Source of the DNA: Escherichia coli
GTDB lineage: Bacteria > Pseudomonadota > Gammaproteobacteria > Enterobacterales > Enterobacteriaceae
Length of the DNA: 64,000 bases
Direction: 5' to 3' (one strand)
NCBI RefSeq assembly: GCF_044647545.1
Contig: NZ_CP172818.1
In this document: in pieces, positions 13,768 to 57,511 of the stretch
Layout of the letters: each line of letters starts with the position of its first letter
How positions within the stretch are numbered: position 1 is the stretch's first letter
The notes under the pieces: model-generated
Database searches by the model: none
What the model was told of the DNA's origin: nothing
The model's input: only the letters and a program-made list of their open reading frames with translations
Position numbers and translations under genes: made by a program

Positions 13768-13932
13768 AGCTTTAATCCTTATTGTTGATGCTTGTTGTGC
13801 CTGAAAATCAGGCGATTCGTCGTTTTAGTAAACAGTACGAACAGATAAACGGTTATTATAATCAACCTGGCTGTGGGTGGCTATAGTTGCCAGGTCCGAC
13901 CGGAGCAGGCTGCGGCAGGGGGGGCGCTTTTC

Positions 13933-13971
13933 CCCTCACCCTAACCCTCTCCCCAGAGGGGCGAGGGGACC
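13933..13971. repeat. GC-rich palindromic repeat, copy L (TCACCCTAACCCTCTCCCCAGAGGGGCGAGGGG)
   Basis: Internal hairpin CCCTCT-CCCC-AGAGGG nested in CCCCTC...GAGGGG; an inverted, diverged copy lies at 14121..14150. Confidence 0.7.
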
Positions 13972-14047
13972 GTATTGTGCAAATATTGTTACCCCAGCAA
14001 CAAACAGGCTCATACAGCCCCTAACCCTTTCATGGCGATGGCTGGGA

Positions 14048-14086
14048 CGGTTCAGACCTTGCCGAATATTCTCCAGCACCGTCTCC
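14048..14086 (-). repeat. Degenerate duplicate of the last ~13 codons of ycjD
   Basis: 35/39 identical to 14154..14192 (the ycjD 3' end); the last 23 nt are exact. Confidence 0.75.
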
Positions 14087-14120
14087 ATGTTTTCACCACA
14101 ACAGCTATTCGGCTCGGTCT

Positions 14121-14150
14121 GCCCCCTCGCTCTTTCAGGGAGAGGGTGAC
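14121..14150. repeat. GC-rich palindromic repeat, copy R (inverted relative to copy L), overlapping the ycjD stop codon
   Basis: Reverse complement GTCACCCTCTCCCTGAAAGAGCGAGGGGGC shares the TCACCCT..CTCCC..AGAG..GCGAGGGG pattern with copy L; encodes the terminal SPSP-stop of YcjD. Confidence 0.7.
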
Positions 14151-14488
14151 CGGCGGTTCAGTTCCTGCAGAATATTCTCCAGCACCGTCTCCTCATTACA
14201 ATCAATCTCGTTATTCCAGAAACGCAGCACGGTCCAGCCCTGCGACTCAAGCCAGCTAGTGCGCCTGGAATCATAGGCAACTGCTAAATCATGCTGCCCA
14301 CCATCCAGCTCAACGACTACACGCGCCGAGCAGCAAGCAAAATCGAGAATGTAGCTCCCCACTGGATGTTGACGGCGAAATTTGAAATCACTAAAACGTC
14401 GGCTGCGAAGATATCGCCAGAGCTTTCGTTCCTGCAAAGTGAGATTGCGTCTTAAATCACGCGCATTTGATTTAATTTTATCTATCAC
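14135..14488 (-). CDS. ycjD: DUF559 protein YcjD (restriction-endonuclease-like fold), function unknown
   Basis: 117-aa ORF MIDKIKSNARDLRRNLTLQERKLWRYLR... Confidence 0.9.
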   Translation of the reverse strand: MIDKIKSNARDLRRNLTLQERKLWRYLRSRRFSDFKFRRQHPVGSYILDFACCSARVVVELDGGQHDLAVAYDSRRTSWLESQGWTVLRFWNNEIDCNEETVLENILQELNRRSPSP

Positions 14489-14555
14489 CTCATTCTGACA
14501 AGATTTAATCTTTTGTCAGAATGAGGTGAATAATCTGGAAGGAGGATTCAGAAGA

Positions 14556-15362
14556 TTAACGGTCCTTACGCCACGCATCCGCCGTCAATGCCTCGCCAAA
14601 ATGACCGGCGATCAGCCGTTTGGTGAGTTCATGCAGCGGCGATGCCAGCACATCCGCGGTGCTGCCTCGCTCGACAACCTCGCCCTGATGCATCACCAGC
14701 ACCTGGTCGCTAATGTGCTTCATCATTCCGATATGCTGGGTAACATAAATATACGAAATGCCCTGTTTTTCCTGTAACTCCAGCATCAGGTTAATCAACT
14801 GCGAACGCATCGACATATCCAGTGAGGCGAGGGCTTCATCGGCAATAATGACTTTTGGGCGCAATATCAGCGCGCGCGCCAGACCCAGACGCTGTTTTTG
14901 CCCGGGTGCCAACATATGCGGATAGTAACTGACGTGATCCGGTAGCAGCCCAACCATACGCATCGTTTCAATAATCTGTTTGCGACGCTGTTCCGGTTCC
15001 AGATCGGTGTTCAGACGCAGTGGAAAATCCAGAATTTGCGAGATACGTTGACGGGGATTCAACGAGGTCGAAGGATCCTGAAAAATCATGCGAATACGCT
15101 GACTGCGGAAGGAATAATCGCCAAAATGCAGCGGATGATCGTCAATCAATAACTCGCCGCTGGTAGGTTCTATCATTCCCGCCAGCATTTTTGCCAGCGT
15201 GGATTTACCCGAACCATTCTCGCCAATAATCGCCAGTGTCTGGCCTTCACGTAGCGTAAAGCTCAAGGGTTTTACCGCTTCTACGGTCTGACGACGAAAC
15301 CAGCCGGTCCGGTAGCGGAACGTTTTACTTAAATTACGCACTTCAAGTAGCGTTTCGATCAT
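14556..15362 (-). CDS. sapF: ABC transporter ATP-binding protein SapF
   Basis: 268-aa ORF with Walker A GENGSGKST and ABC signature LAPGQKQR. Confidence 0.95.
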   Translation of the reverse strand: MIETLLEVRNLSKTFRYRTGWFRRQTVEAVKPLSFTLREGQTLAIIGENGSGKSTLAKMLAGMIEPTSGELLIDDHPLHFGDYSFRSQRIRMIFQDPSTSLNPRQRISQILDFPLRLNTDLEPEQRRKQIIETMRMVGLLPDHVSYYPHMLAPGQKQRLGLARALILRPKVIIADEALASLDMSMRSQLINLMLELQEKQGISYIYVTQHIGMMKHISDQVLVMHQGEVVERGSTADVLASPLHELTKRLIAGHFGEALTADAWRKDR

Positions 15363-39433: not shown

Positions 39434-40489
39434 GTGAAAAGTGCAATGACAAGCTCTCCGCTGCGAGTCGCGATCATAGGCGCGGGCCAGGTGGCGGATA
39501 AAGTTCATGCTTCGTACTACTGCACCCGCAACGATCTGGAACTGGTGGCTGTCTGTGACAGCCGCCTTTCCCAGGCGCAGGCGCTGGCAGAAAAATACGG
39601 GAATGCATCCGTGTGGGACGATCCGCAGGCCATGCTGCTGGCGGTGAAACCTGATGTGGTTAGCGTCTGCTCACCTAACCGTTTTCATTACGAACATACC
39701 CTGATGGCGCTGGAAGCGGGCTGCCATGTGATGTGCGAAAAACCGCCCGCCATGACGCCAGAACAAGCGCGGGAAATGTGCGATACCGCGCGCAAACAGG
39801 GCAAGGTGCTGGCCTACGACTTTCACCATCGTTTTGCACTCGATACGCAACAGCTGCGTGAACAGGTGACCAACGGCGTTTTGGGAGAGATTTACGTTAC
39901 CACCGCCCGCGCCCTGCGTCGCTGCGGTGTTCCCGGCTGGGGTGTCTTTACTAATAAAGAATTGCAGGGCGGCGGGCCGCTTATTGACATCGGCATTCAT
40001 ATGCTGGATGCGGCGATGTATGTACTGGGCTTTCCGGCGGTGAAAAGCGTGACCGCGCATAGCTTTCAAAAGATCGGAACGCAAAAGAGCTGCGGTCAAT
40101 TTGGCGAGTGGGACCCGGCAACCTACAGCGTCGAAGATTCGCTGTTTGGCACCATTGAATTTCATAACGGCGGCATTCTGTGGCTTGAGACCTCATTTGC
40201 ACTCAACATCCGCGAACAGTCGATTATGAACGTCAGCTTTTGTGGTGATAAAGCCGGGGCGACGCTGTTTCCAGCACATATCTACACCGATAACAACGGT
40301 GAGTTAATGACGCTGATGCAACGGGAAATGGCAGACGACAACCGTCATCTGCGCAGTATGGAAGCCTTTATCAACCACGTACAAGGTAAGCCCGTGATGA
40401 TAGCCGACGCCGAGCAGGGGTACATCATCCAGCAACTGGTGGCGGCGTTGTATCAATCCGCAGAAACAGGAACGCGTGTGGAATTATGA
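39434..40489 (+). CDS. ycjS: Gfo/Idh/MocA-family NAD-dependent oxidoreductase YcjS
   Basis: 351-aa ORF, GTG start; N-terminal Rossmann VAIIGAGQVA. Confidence 0.92.
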   Translation: MKSAMTSSPLRVAIIGAGQVADKVHASYYCTRNDLELVAVCDSRLSQAQALAEKYGNASVWDDPQAMLLAVKPDVVSVCSPNRFHYEHTLMALEAGCHVMCEKPPAMTPEQAREMCDTARKQGKVLAYDFHHRFALDTQQLREQVTNGVLGEIYVTTARALRRCGVPGWGVFTNKELQGGGPLIDIGIHMLDAAMYVLGFPAVKSVTAHSFQKIGTQKSCGQFGEWDPATYSVEDSLFGTIEFHNGGILWLETSFALNIREQSIMNVSFCGDKAGATLFPAHIYTDNNGELMTLMQREMADDNRHLRSMEAFINHVQGKPVMIADAEQGYIIQQLVAALYQSAETGTRVEL

Positions 40490-42752
40490 CCAGGCCAGTA
40501 ACGTTAACGGAACCCCATTTCAGCCAGCATACCCTGAACAAGTATGCTTCGCTGATGGCGCAGGGGAACGGCTATCTTGGGCTTCGCGCCAGCCATGAAG
40601 AAGATTATACGCGCCAGACACGCGGTATGTATCTGGCGGGGCTTTATCATCGCGCGGGGAAAATGACATCAACGAACTGGTGAACCTGCCTGACGTCATA
40701 GGGATGGAGATTACCTTGAATGGTGAACTTTTTGCGCTATCCCGCGAAACGTGGCAGCGCGAGCTTGACTTCGCCAGTGGTGAATTACGTCGCAATGTCG
40801 TCTGGTCTTCAGCCAGCGGCGCACGTTATGCCATTGCCAGCCGTCGCTTTGTTTCGGCAGAACAACTGCCGCTGATGGCGCTGGAAATCAGCATTACGCC
40901 GCTGGACGCTGACGCGTCAGTGCTGATTTCAACAGGCATTGACGCCACGCAAACCAACCACGGACGACAACATCTCGACGAAACCCAGGTGCGGGTGTTT
41001 GGTCAGCATTTGATGCAGGGGATCTATACCACTCAGGATGGACGCAGTGATGTGGCCATCAGCTGTTGCTGCCAGGTGAGCGGTGACGTGCAGCAATGCT
41101 ATACCGCCAAAGAGCGCCGCTTGCTGCAACATACCAGTGCACAACTACCTGCGGGCAAAACGCTGACGCTGCAAAAACGGGTGTGGATCGACTGGCGGGA
41201 CGACAGACACGTCGCTTTAGACGAGTGGGGTAGTGCATCGCTTCGTCAGCTTGAAATGTGTGTACAGCAGAGTTACGACCAACTTCTTGCAGCATCCACA
41301 GAAAACTGGCGTCAATGGTGGCAGAAACGTCGTATCACGGTAAACGGTGGCGATGCGCACGATCAGCAAGCGTTAGATTATGCGCTTTATCACCTACGCA
41401 TCATGACGCCTGCTCACGACGAGCGCAGCAGTATTGCGGCAAAAGGTTTGACCGGGGAAGGCTACAAAGGCCACGTTTTCTGGGATACGGAAGTATTTTT
41501 ACTGCCGTTCCATCTGTTTAGCGAACCGACGATTGCCAGAAGTTTACTGCGTTATCGCTGGCACAACTTGCCAGGCGCGCAGGAGAAAGCGCGACGCAAC
41601 GGCTGGCAGGGCGCGCTATTTCCGTGGGAAAGCGCGCGCAGCGGCGAAGAAGAGACGCCGGAATTTGCCGCCATTAACATTCGCACCGGGCTGCGGCAAA
41701 AAGTGGCCTCGGCGCAGGCGGAACATCATCTGGTCGCCGATATCGCCTGGGCGGTTGTTCAATACTGGCAGACCACGGGGGATGAAAGTTTCATTGCTCA
41801 TGAAGGCATGGCGCTACTTCTGGAAACTGCAAAGTTCTGGATTAGCCGCACGGTGAGGGTTAACGACCGTCTGGAAATTCATGATGTTATTGGGCCAGAC
41901 GAATATACCGAACATGTCAATAATAACGCCTTCACCAGCTATATGGCGTATTACAACGTCCAGCAGGCGCTGAACATCGCTCGTCAATTTGGCTGTAGCG
42001 ACGATGCGTTTATCCATCGCGCCGAAATGTTCCTTAAAGAACTGCGGCTGCCAGAAATTCAGCCCGACCGCGTTTTGCCGCAGGATGATTCGTTTATGGC
42101 GAAACCAGCGATTAATCTGGCGAAATACAAAGCGGCGGCGGGGAAGCAAACCATTCTGCTGGATTATTCACGCGCAGAAGTGAACGAGATGCAGATCCTC
42201 AAACAAGCTGATGTGGTGATGCTCAATTACATGCTGCCGGAGCAGTACTCAGCGGCATCGTGTCTTGCCAATCTGCAATTTTATGAACCGCGCACCATTC
42301 ACGACTCTTCACTGAGTAAAGCGATCCACGGCATTGTTGCCGCACGCTGTGGCCTGTTGGCGCAAAGTTATCAGTTCTGGCGGGAGGGGACTGAAATCGA
42401 TCTTGGTGCTGATCCGCATAGCTGTGATGACGGTATCCACGCTGCCGCAACTGGCGCAATCTGGTTGGGGGCGATTCAGGGTTTTGCCGGGGCGAGCGTG
42501 CGCAACGGTGAATTACATCTCAATCCGGCGTTACCTGAGCAGTGGCAACAGTTGTCTTTCCCTCTGTTCTGGCAGGGCTGTGAATTACAGGTCACTCTTG
42601 ACGCGCAGCGCATTGCGATTCGGACTTCTGCGCCAGTTTCACTGCGTTTGAACGGTCAGCTTATTTCAGTCTCTGAAGAATCTGTTTTCTGTTTAGGGGA
42701 TTTTATTTTGCCCTTCAATGGGACCGCTACCACGCATCAGGAGGGTGAATGA
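40486..42752 (+). pseudogene. ycjT: GH65 glycoside phosphorylase YcjT (kojibiose phosphorylase), interrupted by a 1-nt frameshift near 40656..40663
   Basis: ORFs 40486..40683 (65 aa) and 40680..42752 (690 aa) are two halves of one gene in frames +1 and +3; one extra base in the GGGGAAAA run would give a continuous ~755-aa protein. Confidence 0.8.
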
Positions 42753-43421: not shown

Positions 43422-44504
43422 ATGGCTCAGCTTTCGTTACAACATATTCAAAAAATCTACGATAACCAGGTGCATGTGGTGAAGGACTTCAACCTGGAAA
43501 TTGCCGATAAAGAGTTCATTGTCTTTGTCGGTCCGTCAGGCTGCGGTAAATCGACTACGCTGCGCATGATTGCCGGGCTTGAGGAGATCAGCGGTGGCGA
43601 TCTGTTGATCGACGGCAAACGAATGAATGACGTTCCAGCCAAAGCGCGCAATATCGCGATGGTGTTCCAGAACTACGCGCTGTATCCGCATATGACGGTC
43701 TACGACAACATGGCGTTTGGCCTGAAGATGCAAAAAATCGCCAAAGAGGTGATTGATGAGCGGGTTAACTGGGCGGCGCAAATCCTCGGCCTGCGTGAGT
43801 ACCTGAAACGCAAGCCGGGCGCGCTTTCTGGCGGGCAACGCCAGCGTGTGGCGCTCGGACGGGCGATTGTGCGCGAAGCGGGCGTGTTTTTAATGGATGA
43901 ACCGCTCTCTAACCTTGATGCCAAGCTGCGCGTACAAATGCGCGCAGAGATCAGCAAGCTGCATCAGAAACTGAACACCACCATGATCTACGTGACCCAC
44001 GATCAGACCGAAGCGATGACCATGGCGACGCGGATTGTGATTATGAAGGATGGGATTGTTCAGCAGGTCGGTGCGCCGAAAACGGTTTATAACCAACCTG
44101 CGAATATGTTTGTTGCCGGATTTATTGGATCGCCTGCGATGAATTTTATTCGCGGCACGATCGATGGCGATAAATTCGTTACGGAAACGCTTAAATTAAC
44201 CATACCCGAAGAGAAATTAGCGGTTCTGAAAACACAGGAAAGTTTGCATAAGCCCATCGTGATGGGAATACGCCCGGAAGATATTCATCCGGACGCGCAA
44301 GAGGAAAATAACATTTCCGCCAAAATTAGCGTGGCAGAATTAACCGGTGCGGAATTTATGCTCTACACCACGGTTGGGGGGCACGAGTTAGTGGTCCGTG
44401 CTGGTGCGTTAAATGATTATCATGCAGGAGAAAATATCACTATTCATTTTGATATGACTAAATGTCATTTCTTTGATGCAGAAACGAAAATAGCAATTCG
44501 CTAA
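43422..44504 (+). CDS. ycjV: ABC transporter ATP-binding protein YcjV (MalK-like), full length
   Basis: 360-aa ORF with Walker A GPSGCGKST, signature LSGGQRQR and a C-terminal TOBE-like extension. Confidence 0.92.
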   Translation: MAQLSLQHIQKIYDNQVHVVKDFNLEIADKEFIVFVGPSGCGKSTTLRMIAGLEEISGGDLLIDGKRMNDVPAKARNIAMVFQNYALYPHMTVYDNMAFGLKMQKIAKEVIDERVNWAAQILGLREYLKRKPGALSGGQRQRVALGRAIVREAGVFLMDEPLSNLDAKLRVQMRAEISKLHQKLNTTMIYVTHDQTEAMTMATRIVIMKDGIVQQVGAPKTVYNQPANMFVAGFIGSPAMNFIRGTIDGDKFVTETLKLTIPEEKLAVLKTQESLHKPIVMGIRPEDIHPDAQEENNISAKISVAELTGAEFMLYTTVGGHELVVRAGALNDYHAGENITIHFDMTKCHFFDAETKIAIR

Positions 44505-52435: not shown

Positions 52436-53138
52436 GATGCCAGCGCAGCAAGTTTGCCATCGCAAAGAGATATTTTTCGCTGGCTTCGTCGGAGGAGATG
52501 GGCGGAAACTCTGCGGTGATGCAATGCAGGTTGAGATCCGCACACCAACTGCCGAAAGAGCCAGGCGTTTCATAACCGACGCTGGTTACCAGTGGCAATT
52601 CAAACGCCTGGGCCAGCCATTCACCTAATTCGCTGTGTCTGGGGTCTTCAATACAGGCCAGTGGATCGTGGAATGAGACCACCCAGGCAGGTTGAATGCG
52701 GTGTATAAGCTGGCACAGCGCCTGAGTTTCAGGTTCGGAGCCAGGTTTGTCACCTGTCAGTAAAACGACATCACGTTCTTCAGCGGTGCTGTTCCAGCGA
52801 TAAACTGTTTCACCTTCCTTCCAGTTCGCTGCCGGAAAGTTTCGGTTTAAATCCACACCATTAGCATTGGCCCGTAACCCTAACTGGCAGCCGTCAGGAT
52901 TCACACACAGCACCACATGATGGCGGCGCAAAGACGGTGTCAAAGTCCGCAGAGCACAGGAGAGCGTGACGATCGAAGAGTTTTCATCACCGTGAGTGCC
53001 AGCCAGAATCAAACCACTTTCGTGACTGGCGGCTGGGGCCGGAAACCAGATCAAAGGCGCGCCCAATAATGAACGTCCGTAATGTTCTGTACCGGGCGGA
53101 AATGCGCCGCGTTCGGCGCGTGGGCGAGTTACGGTCAT
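52410..53138 (-). CDS. mpaA: Murein peptide amidase A MpaA (zinc carboxypeptidase family)
   Basis: ORF 52410..53198; start at MTVTRPRAERGAF...; 242 aa; 3' end overlaps ycjG by 26 nt. Confidence 0.9.
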   Translation of the reverse strand: MTVTRPRAERGAFPPGTEHYGRSLLGAPLIWFPAPAASHESGLILAGTHGDENSSIVTLSCALRTLTPSLRRHHVVLCVNPDGCQLGLRANANGVDLNRNFPAANWKEGETVYRWNSTAEERDVVLLTGDKPGSEPETQALCQLIHRIQPAWVVSFHDPLACIEDPRHSELGEWLAQAFELPLVTSVGYETPGSFGSWCADLNLHCITAEFPPISSDEASEKYLFAMANLLRWHPKDAIRPL

Positions 53139-53318
53139 GATCGTCTCTGGTTCAGGAAGTATTACAGGCAGTGTTGTGCAAATTTTGCGGATTATCAAAT
53201 CCTTTTCTTCAACGCTATGTTATCGATCTTTTCACTTTTTTGCCGGAAGTTGTTTGCATTTCTTTAAGGCGAAACAAATAATTACGCATCAATTTTAATG
53301 TCGGTTAGAGGGAAACTT

Positions 53319-54982: not shown

Positions 54983-56014
54983 TTAGCGACCCTGGTCCGG
55001 CGGTGTAATGTTATCCATATACAGCGTCTGGCTGGGGAAGGCAAAGTCCGCACCGTGTGACTGTACAATATCGATAATCTTCAAATAAACGTCTTGCTGT
55101 GCAGCAAGCCATTCAGCCCATACCGTGGTTTTGGTAAAGCAATAAACCATAATATTCAATGAGGAGTCAGCAAACTGGTTGAAATAAACCAGTAAGGTTT
55201 GTCGCTGGTCGATGGCCGGGTGATTTTTCAGCATCTCACGTACGGCTTCGACAATAACGCCCACTTTTGCCGCATCCTCATAACGTAAACCAATGGTCGT
55301 GGTAATGCGCCGGTTGGTCATTCGTCCTGGGTTTTCTACGCTGATTGACGAAAACAACGAGTTCGGTACGTACAACGGACGATTATCAAAAGTCGTAATT
55401 TTGGTAATTCGCCAGCCAATTTCCGCTACTGTACCTTCGATATTTCTGTCCGGTGAACGGATCCAGTCGCCAATACTAAAAGGACGGTCGAAATAGAGCA
55501 TAATCCCGGAAAAGAAGTTACTCAAAATATCTTTACCGGCCATACCGACAGCCAGACCACCAATACCACCAAAGGTCAACAAGCCAGAAAGGCTCATGCC
55601 GAAATGTTCGCCATAAAGCAGAACAAGCACCACAATAATGGTGATTTTGATAATGCGCGACATGATCCGCGCACTGGTGATATCGCGACCTTTTTTAATC
55701 TGCTGTTTTTCAAACTGATTAATCAGCAGAAATAGCTTAATCGTCAGAATAACCGCAATCAGGGACGTACAGATAAAATCGATAACGCCTGGGGTGATAA
55801 ATTTGAGTTTATAGTTTTCTATAACATAGTTAATGATGCTACCAACAGCACTAATAATTATGGTGTAGATTAAAAATTGCACCGCATGGAATAAAAATCC
55901 TTTTCTTTTACGATTTCCACGGCGAAACCAAAAGCTCATCAGAATCAATGCTGCGCAGCTACCGAAAATAATGACCAGATTAAGCGCATTATTTGTAAAC
56001 AGTTCAGCGATCAT
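54983..56014 (-). CDS. ynaI: Small-conductance mechanosensitive channel YnaI (MscS family)
   Basis: 343-aa ORF with N-terminal TM helices and MscS-like C-terminal domain. Confidence 0.93.
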
Positions 56015-56253
56015 TGTTTTATCAGGCTCCTCCAGATAATTGTCGTCATGCCGGAAACCCCTGGCGGGACTATTTTACCGCGACAATTCATTCAGATCAT
56101 CAATAGTCAGGGAAGGAAGTAGCAACTCTAACTAATCAATACGTTGATTGTAAATCCAGCTAAGAGGTGAGGTTTTCAGAGCAGACAACGGTGAAATGTC
56201 ATGGTATTGTTACGTTTAGGTAACAAGAAATTTGTCTGCACAAGGATTACATC

Positions 56254-56511
56254 ATGATTATGGCGAAACTGAAGTCAGCGAAAGGGAAGAAATTTCTCTT
56301 TGGTTTGTTGGCGGTTTTCATTATTGCGGCGTCGGTTGTGACTCGCGCGACCATCGGCGGCGTTATAGAACAGTACAATATTCCGCTGTCTGAGTGGACG
56401 ACATCAATGTATGTGATTCAGTCATCGATGATTTTTGTTTATAGCCTGGTCTTTACTGTGTTGCTGGCAATACCGTTGGGAATTTATTTTCTTGGCGGCG
56501 AAGAGCAGTAA
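56254..56511 (+). CDS. ynaJ: Small membrane protein YnaJ (DUF2534), function unknown
   Basis: 85-aa ORF with two predicted TM helices. Confidence 0.85.
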   Translation: MIMAKLKSAKGKKFLFGLLAVFIIAASVVTRATIGGVIEQYNIPLSEWTTSMYVIQSSMIFVYSLVFTVLLAIPLGIYFLGGEEQ

Positions 56512-56520
56512 GTAAAAAAT

Positions 56521-56540
56521 AGGCCCGATAACTCGGGCCT
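56521..56540. terminator. Hairpin between convergent ynaJ and uspE
   Basis: AGGCCCG-ATAACT-CGGGCCT; on the minus strand it is followed by ATTTTTTACT, consistent with uspE termination. Confidence 0.6.
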
Positions 56541-56560
56541 TGTCAGTTATTGAAGAGTCG

Positions 56561-57511
56561 TTAATCGTCTTCTTCGTCATCCAGTTCAACGGGTGTCTGA
56601 TACTGGTCAGGTTTAATGACCAGCAGGTCGCAGCGAAGATGATCAATCACCTGTTCCGCCGTGTTGCCAAGGAATGCTGCTGAAATACCGGTGCGTCCGA
56701 CCGTGCCCAGAACCACAATCCCCGCCTGTAAGTGCTCCGCCAAATCAGGAATCACCTCTTCGGGCAGACCTTTTTCTACGTGCGTCATGTTTTCATTAAT
56801 GCCGAATTTCTGCCGCAGGGCTTTCATTGCCAGCAAATGTTGCCCACGAATGGCATCGTTATAAACGCTCGGATCAAATTCCGGCAGTTCAATCGCGATA
56901 TTAATTGGCGTTACCGGATAAGCGCCAACCAGATGAACTTCGGTATGGTTGACTTGTTCCGCCAGTTCGATCGTCTCTTTGACCAGTTTTTCATTGAGCG
57001 CATTATGGTACGGCTCTTCACTGGCGAGATTCACCGCCACCAGCGCCTTACCCCCTTCCGGCCACGGCTGGTCTTTCACCATCCACACGGGGCTTGGGCA
57101 TTTGCGTAACAGATGCCAGTCCGTTGGCGTAAAAATCACCGCTTCCAGACGGTCATGTTGGTGCGCCATTTTTAGCACCAAATCGTGCCCGCCGCTGATC
57201 ACTTCCTGAATGATGGCTTCGAAAGGACGGTTATGCCAGACCACTTTAATTTCAATGGGAACGCCAGCATTGAGATAATATTTTGCCTGCTCGTGGATCC
57301 AGGCTGTACGCTGGCTGATGACGCCCTGACGCATAGCGGTACGTTCGTCCGGAGAGAGCAGGGTGGTCATTTCGTATGAGAAGTCATAGATCGGCAAAAA
57401 GGCTTTAATTTTGCCACCAATCCGTTGATGTAAATAAACAGCTCGCCGCAATGCTGGTTGGTCGTCCTGGTTAGGATCGATAACAACGAGCATGTTCTGA
57501 TACATAGCCAT
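56561..57511 (-). CDS. uspE: Universal stress protein E (tandem Usp domains)
   Basis: ORF 56561..57538; start at internal ATG after AGGAG ([13 protein letters not shown]...) giving 316 aa. Confidence 0.93.

Follow-up and report, generated by a model that had tools for sequence, protein, structure and literature searches.

Genes and spacer content at the locus

In the 64-kb stretch of Escherichia coli DNA that was analysed (the window), the divergently oriented genes ynaI and ynaJ are separated by an AT-rich intergenic spacer that carries no insertion sequence (Table 1). The YnaI protein is identical to that of MG1655 at 342 of the 343 residues, the sole difference being located at residue 340 (D in the window and E in MG1655), and YnaJ is identical at all 85 residues. 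The gene order is mppA-ynaI / ynaJ-uspE-fnr, with the neighbouring open reading frames matching mppA, uspE and fnr. The orthologous proteins and the conserved neighbourhood identify the two genes as the ynaI-ynaJ divergent pair of E. coli.

Table 1. Features of the ynaI-ynaJ locus and private deletions of the window relative to the nearest genome (window coordinates).
Feature	Position	Strand	Basis or remark
ynaI, MscS-type low-conductance mechanosensitive channel, 343 aa	54983..56014	-	ORF; annotated ynaI in relatives
ynaI-ynaJ divergent intergenic spacer, 239 bp, 41% GC, without insertion sequence	56015..56253	.	ORF bounds
Private variant, ATTAG of all other empty sites (for BS-01 and HS-01 see text) replaced by a single T, net -4 bp	56127..56127	+	Alignments
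Unoccupied CTAA, counterpart of the tetranucleotide that IS5F has duplicated in MG1655	56128..56131	+	Alignment of MG1655 flanks
Second CTAA, in tandem with the first, forming CTAACTAA	56132..56135	+	Octamer found once only in the window
Further CTAA in the spacer	56160..56163	+	Motif scan
TTAG (CTAA on the minus strand)	56216..56219	+	Motif scan
ynaJ, DUF2534 small membrane protein, 85 aa	56254..56511	+	ORF; annotated ynaJ in relatives
Private deletion, CC to C	25241		Beside REP-like hairpin
Private deletion, A5 to A4	40660		Frameshift in ycjT, stop after 65 codons
Private deletion, CC to C	45494		Inside REP-like hairpin
Private deletion, GTA to T	53231		Upstream of mppA
Private deletion, ATTAG to T	56127		ynaI-ynaJ spacer

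The promoters and leaders of the two divergent genes are presumably located within the spacer, as the gene arrangement suggests. Nothing special with regard to function was detected in it and it does nothing unusual. No repeat families were found in the spacer beyond short chance matches, the inverted repeats within it were short or imperfect, and an Rfam scan of positions 55800-56700 with E-values up to 1 returned no family of structured RNA. On the plus strand at 56049-56075, a T-run is preceded by a short hairpin rich in GC (TGCCGG...CTGGCG), a feature that is conserved in relatives. It lies on the strand opposite to ynaI, 35-60 bp upstream of the start codon of that gene, and was flagged as terminator-like by a scan (1 found, with 0.2-0.4 expected).

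The definition of an IS5 element required a length of about 1195 bp, terminal inverted repeats of 16 bp (GGAAGGTGCGAAYAAG) and an ins5A/insH transposase gene. The spacer consists of unique sequence and contains no such element, and a blastn search with IS5F of MG1655 detected no IS5 in the whole 64-kb window.

The IS5F target and its occupancy

The MG1655 reference sequence (NC_000913.3) is annotated with "insertion sequence:IS5F" and insH4 (b1331) at 1396044-1397238, between ynaI (b1330) and ynaJ (b1332). The 1195-bp element is bounded by GGAAGGTGCGAACAAG at one end and by the reverse complement of GGAAGGTGCGAATAAG at the other. Read directly from the reference, the junctions are ...AACATTAG-CTAA-[IS5F]-CTAA-CTAATCAATG..., which corresponds to a target duplication of CTAA; the left flank reads ...ATTAG-CTAA and the right flank opens with CTAA-CTAATC. 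In a three-way alignment of the MG1655 flanks, the window and an IS-free relative, the insertion point fell in the first CTAA of CTAACTAA (window 56128-56131), at a distance of 113 bp from the start codon of ynaI and 122 bp from that of ynaJ. An earlier note on this DNA had placed an IS5 copy between ynaI and ynaJ in MG1655, and had described 239 bp of unique sequence without IS5 between the two divergent genes of the window, with CTAA-type target tetranucleotides around 56127..56135. This placement was correct, and the alternative that the reference has no insertion sequence at this position was examined and found not to be so. The description of the spacer agrees with the ORF bounds and the blastn result, the tetranucleotides correspond to the tandem motif at 56128-56135, and the alignment to MG1655 that the note had proposed located the insertion and its CTAA/CTAA duplication as predicted.

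The target consensus of IS5 is C-A/T-A-G/A and insertions are biased toward AT-rich intergenic DNA (PMC11677980). The CTAA at 56128-56131 has the properties of an unoccupied IS5 target in that it matches the 4-bp consensus (of which CTAA or CTAG are typical), it is homologous to a site that in MG1655 is occupied by IS5 with the target duplicated on both sides, and it is located in an AT-rich intergenic context (41% GC as compared with 51% for the whole window). The number of CTAA/TTAG sites in the spacer is higher than expected from the window-wide density (4 observed, 0.69 expected), though the spacer is AT-rich. The possibility that CTAACTAA itself is an old IS5 footprint was considered and rejected, given that the window contains 273 tandem 4-mer duplications where about 250 are expected, which is not unusual and is consistent with a chance origin.

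When compared with the IS5F/insH4 site of the K-12 strains MG1655, W3110 and BW25113, the locus, the flanking genes and the CTAA target are the same (PMC11677980), but in the window IS5 is absent and the target is single and not duplicated. The spacer of the window also has A at 56069 and 56141 where K-12 has G, and it differs by the ATTAG-to-T change at 56127. It is thus not simply the MG1655 spacer minus IS5, given these two SNPs and the private change abutting the target. The occupied state is well documented in K-12: one of the 11 IS5 copies of BW25113 is located at ynaI/ynaJ (PMC11677980), and stocks of W3110 and MG1655 have been described in which the IS5 b1331 lies on the right-hand side of ynaI, with recombination between this copy and a second IS5 near ogt having deleted ynaJ-uspE-fnr in some of them (PMC2072959). 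One endpoint of this deletion is the same intergenic site as the one described here (PMC2072959), whereas in the window all three genes are intact. Given that no IS5 is present in the 64 kb, the K-12-type instability of ynaJ-uspE-fnr is impossible in the window without a new insertion. Of the pair of IS5 elements that recombine to produce this deletion in some K-12 stocks, the strain is missing one.

The frequencies of the empty and the occupied states were determined among complete E. coli genomes. An uninterrupted locus, scored as a contiguous match to a 901-bp query, was found in 5055 of the 5422 genomes that have the locus. The MG1655 junctions were present in 358 genomes on the left (spacer plus IS5 end) and in 351 on the right. 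Of the approximately 358 carriers, the 60 that were listed were without exception K-12 laboratory derivatives, e.g. MG1655, C600, J53, DH5alpha, DH1, RR1 and NCM3722. The difference of seven genomes between the counts for the two junctions could reflect IS5-mediated deletions of ynaJ-uspE-fnr as in K-12 stocks.

These results indicate that the IS-free spacer is the ancestral and majority state and that the IS5F insertion is a marker of the K-12 lineage. Since the site is empty in most genomes and the sampled carriers are all K-12, absence of IS5 says only that a sequence is "not K-12", for which the empty site provides a quick test. The interpretation in the earlier note of the missing element as a strain marker rather than a functional novelty is therefore supported, with the qualification that the empty state is ancestral and the marker is really the insertion in K-12. 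The polymorphism between K-12 and non-K-12 strains at this locus is already known, the element being a documented K-12 feature and its absence the norm of the species.

When compared with the canonical empty spacer of non-K-12 E. coli (FDAARGOS_497, ST648, IAI39 and CE10), the 901 bp around the locus are identical save one site and the gene order mppA-ynaI-ynaJ-uspE-fnr is shared. The canonical spacer is 243 bp long and contains AACATTAGCTAACTAA, whereas the spacer of the window is 239 bp long and contains AACTCTAACTAA. As read from the assemblies compared, this private 4-bp shortening beside the IS5 target is the one new detail.

The window, from an ST648-like E. coli, thus very probably shows the region between the divergent genes ynaI and ynaJ in its unoccupied, ancestral form, with the ATTAG-to-T change being a private small deletion. 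According to this interpretation, a single IS5 (IS5F, insH4) would have inserted in the K-12 lineage into the first CTAA of CTAACTAA, in the middle of the AT-rich spacer, with duplication of CTAA, and the window would have kept the same motif without the element. The ATTAG-to-T change would have arisen either through an error in sequencing or assembly or through a mutation of very recent date, in both cases unconnected with IS5.

A private variant beside the target and its possible origins

The window reads GCAAC-T-CTAACTAATC where the canonical sequence is GCAAC-ATTAG-CTAACTAATC, the change adjoining the CTAA that serves as the IS5 target on its left side. As a result, the palindrome TTAGCTAA loses its TTAG half. 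The change can be described either as a 4-bp deletion plus a substitution or as two adjacent deletions. A 75-bp query across the variant had no exact match in any of 5426 complete E. coli genomes. Similarly, exact searches of species-representative genomes and of JGI metagenome contigs gave no match, and gapped patterns allowing 0-4 bases between AGTAGCAAC (or GGAAGTAGCAAC in the metagenome scan) and CTAACTAATCAAT gave none in the same two collections; these scans were run without the canonical ATTAG as a positive control, and the metagenome negatives are weak evidence.

The only shortened variants otherwise seen among approximately 4980 empty sites were those of BS-01 (NZ_CP172816.1) and HS-01 (NZ_CP172817.1), in which exactly ATTAG (5 bp) is missing at the same spot. 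These two genomes have the K-12 bases at both spacer SNPs and are not K-12 derivatives. They differ from MG1655 by 19 SNPs in 6 kb with no other indels, and their identity to the window in the vicinity of the locus is about 98.5%.

To put the variant into context, approximately 63 kb of the window was aligned to the nearest genome, WP4-S18-ESBL-09. The alignment contained a single substitution (A in the window and G in WP4-S18-ESBL-09, at 44487), six deletion events comprising 9 bases and no insertions, all of them private to the window. For 53231 as well as for 56127 the alignment shows two neighbouring gaps, hence the five rows for private deletions in Table 1. None of the top-scoring genomes shared the loss of the four bases that are missing between 30000 and 54000, so these losses too appear to be private. 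Five of the six deletion events are intergenic although the window is mostly coding, and the first 13.9 kb of the window showed no differences at all from the nearest genome. The six private deletions were examined for a common motif, e.g. a methylation site, and none was found; two are located at REP-like hairpins. The shortened ycjT at 40486-40681, which encodes 756 aa in relatives, is either a pseudogene or the result of a sequencing error.

With regard to the ATTAG-to-T change itself, a consensus error in the source assembly, of the same kind as might underlie the other private deletions, and a real mutation are about equally probable. All length changes are deletions and they outnumber SNPs by 6:1, an excess that is not usual in recent divergence. 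Three of the events are contractions of short homopolymers (CC to C twice and A5 to A4), one of which causes the frameshift in ycjT, two are odd complex changes alike in shape (GTA-to-T and ATTAG-to-T), and the variant was found neither in the other E. coli genomes nor in species-representative genomes or metagenome contigs. All of this is suggestive of an error in the consensus. Random errors would, however, mostly hit genes, and the predominantly intergenic location of the events resembles that of real deletions that have been filtered by selection. The absence of any difference in the first 13.9 kb also argues against an error, and given that the source is a distinct strain, with ycjD where its relatives have a 7.9-kb efflux island, some private differences are to be expected. 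The private 4-bp difference together with the other private deletions is mainly a reason for caution about the source assembly at the level of single bases.

An alternative explanation is that the change is a footprint of IS5 itself, i.e. that an element inserted at or next to the CTAA in the lineage of the window and was subsequently lost by imprecise excision together with flanking bases. The change abuts the very CTAA that was used by IS5 in K-12, and at the same position the independent lineage of BS-01 and HS-01 lacks precisely ATTAG. Given that shortened variants are otherwise absent from the approximately 4980 empty sites, two events on the same 5 bases look non-random, and a purely coincidental location beside the IS5 target is somewhat uncomfortable to assume. 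Nevertheless, we consider a footprint to be highly unlikely. An excision footprint is characterized by an extra target copy and/or remnants of the IS termini, and the window has neither: no additional CTAA and no residue of an IS5 end are present, and the two CTAA are those found in every empty site. Reasoning from the alignment, no simple pair of breakpoints in an occupied site would yield AAC-T-CTAA. Copy-and-paste is reportedly the main mode of IS5 transposition, and one case of precise excision has been reported (PMC11677980), which is unfavourable to the idea of an excision scar. Finally, a complex change of comparable kind (GTA-to-T at 53231) is found elsewhere in the window, as are four further private deletions, none of them at this IS5 site, for which reason a general cause fits better than a footprint.

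The shared position of the losses in the window and, independently, in BS-01/HS-01 could also mean that the ATTAG to the left of the IS5 target is a recurrent hot spot for micro-deletions, caused either by repeated transient insertion and imprecise excision of IS5 or by instability of the TTAGCTAA palindrome. We regard this as improbable. If transient IS5 insertions were the true cause of such a hot spot, natural E. coli genomes would carry recognisable scars of IS5 excision.

Two other suggestions concerning the variant were set aside. A template-switch origin was rejected, given that within 3 kb only one 7-mer direct or inverted template was found for the novel junction k-mers. A sigma-70-like match on the minus strand (-35 at 56154-56149 and -10 TAGAGT at 56130-56125) was not regarded as a promoter, given that it is at chance level (1 found, 1.2 expected), is created by the private variant and has no counterpart in the canonical spacer.

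Source lineage of the window

The window is ST648-like, and over tens of kb its sequence coincides with that of several ST648-type genomes. The identity to WP4-S18-ESBL-09 is 100% over 24 kb, and the 901-bp query across the locus matches strain ST648, ECONIH1, MS6198 and others at all but one site. The identity to MG1655 around the locus is about 98.5%, with 85 mismatches in 5.9 kb. The structure of the empty site would also fit the loss of the element plus one CTAA from a K-12 derivative, by engineering or by precise excision, and deletions of the ynaI/ynaJ IS5 have been engineered in BW25113 (PMC11677980), but the probability of such an origin is practically nil and it was ruled out by the sequence divergence from MG1655, by the 24 kb of complete identity to ST648-type genomes and by the absence of ycjY and pgrR between mpaA and mppA.

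The mpaA-mppA interval of MG1655 contains ycjY, pgrR, ymjC and ymjD. In the corresponding spacer of the window (approximately 53000-53300) ycjY and pgrR are absent, as they are in ST648-type relatives, and part of the sequence of the ymjC region has been kept at about 95% identity. The interval between fabI and sapF (window 13891-14556) contains a K-12-like segment of 666 bp with ycjD (ORF 14135-14488, minus strand). In ST648-type relatives that are otherwise identical, this segment is replaced by a 7.9-kb RND efflux island, with the flanks being 100% identical, and the island contains genes for a TetR regulator, an RND adaptor, an RND permease, an outer-membrane factor and an MFS transporter.
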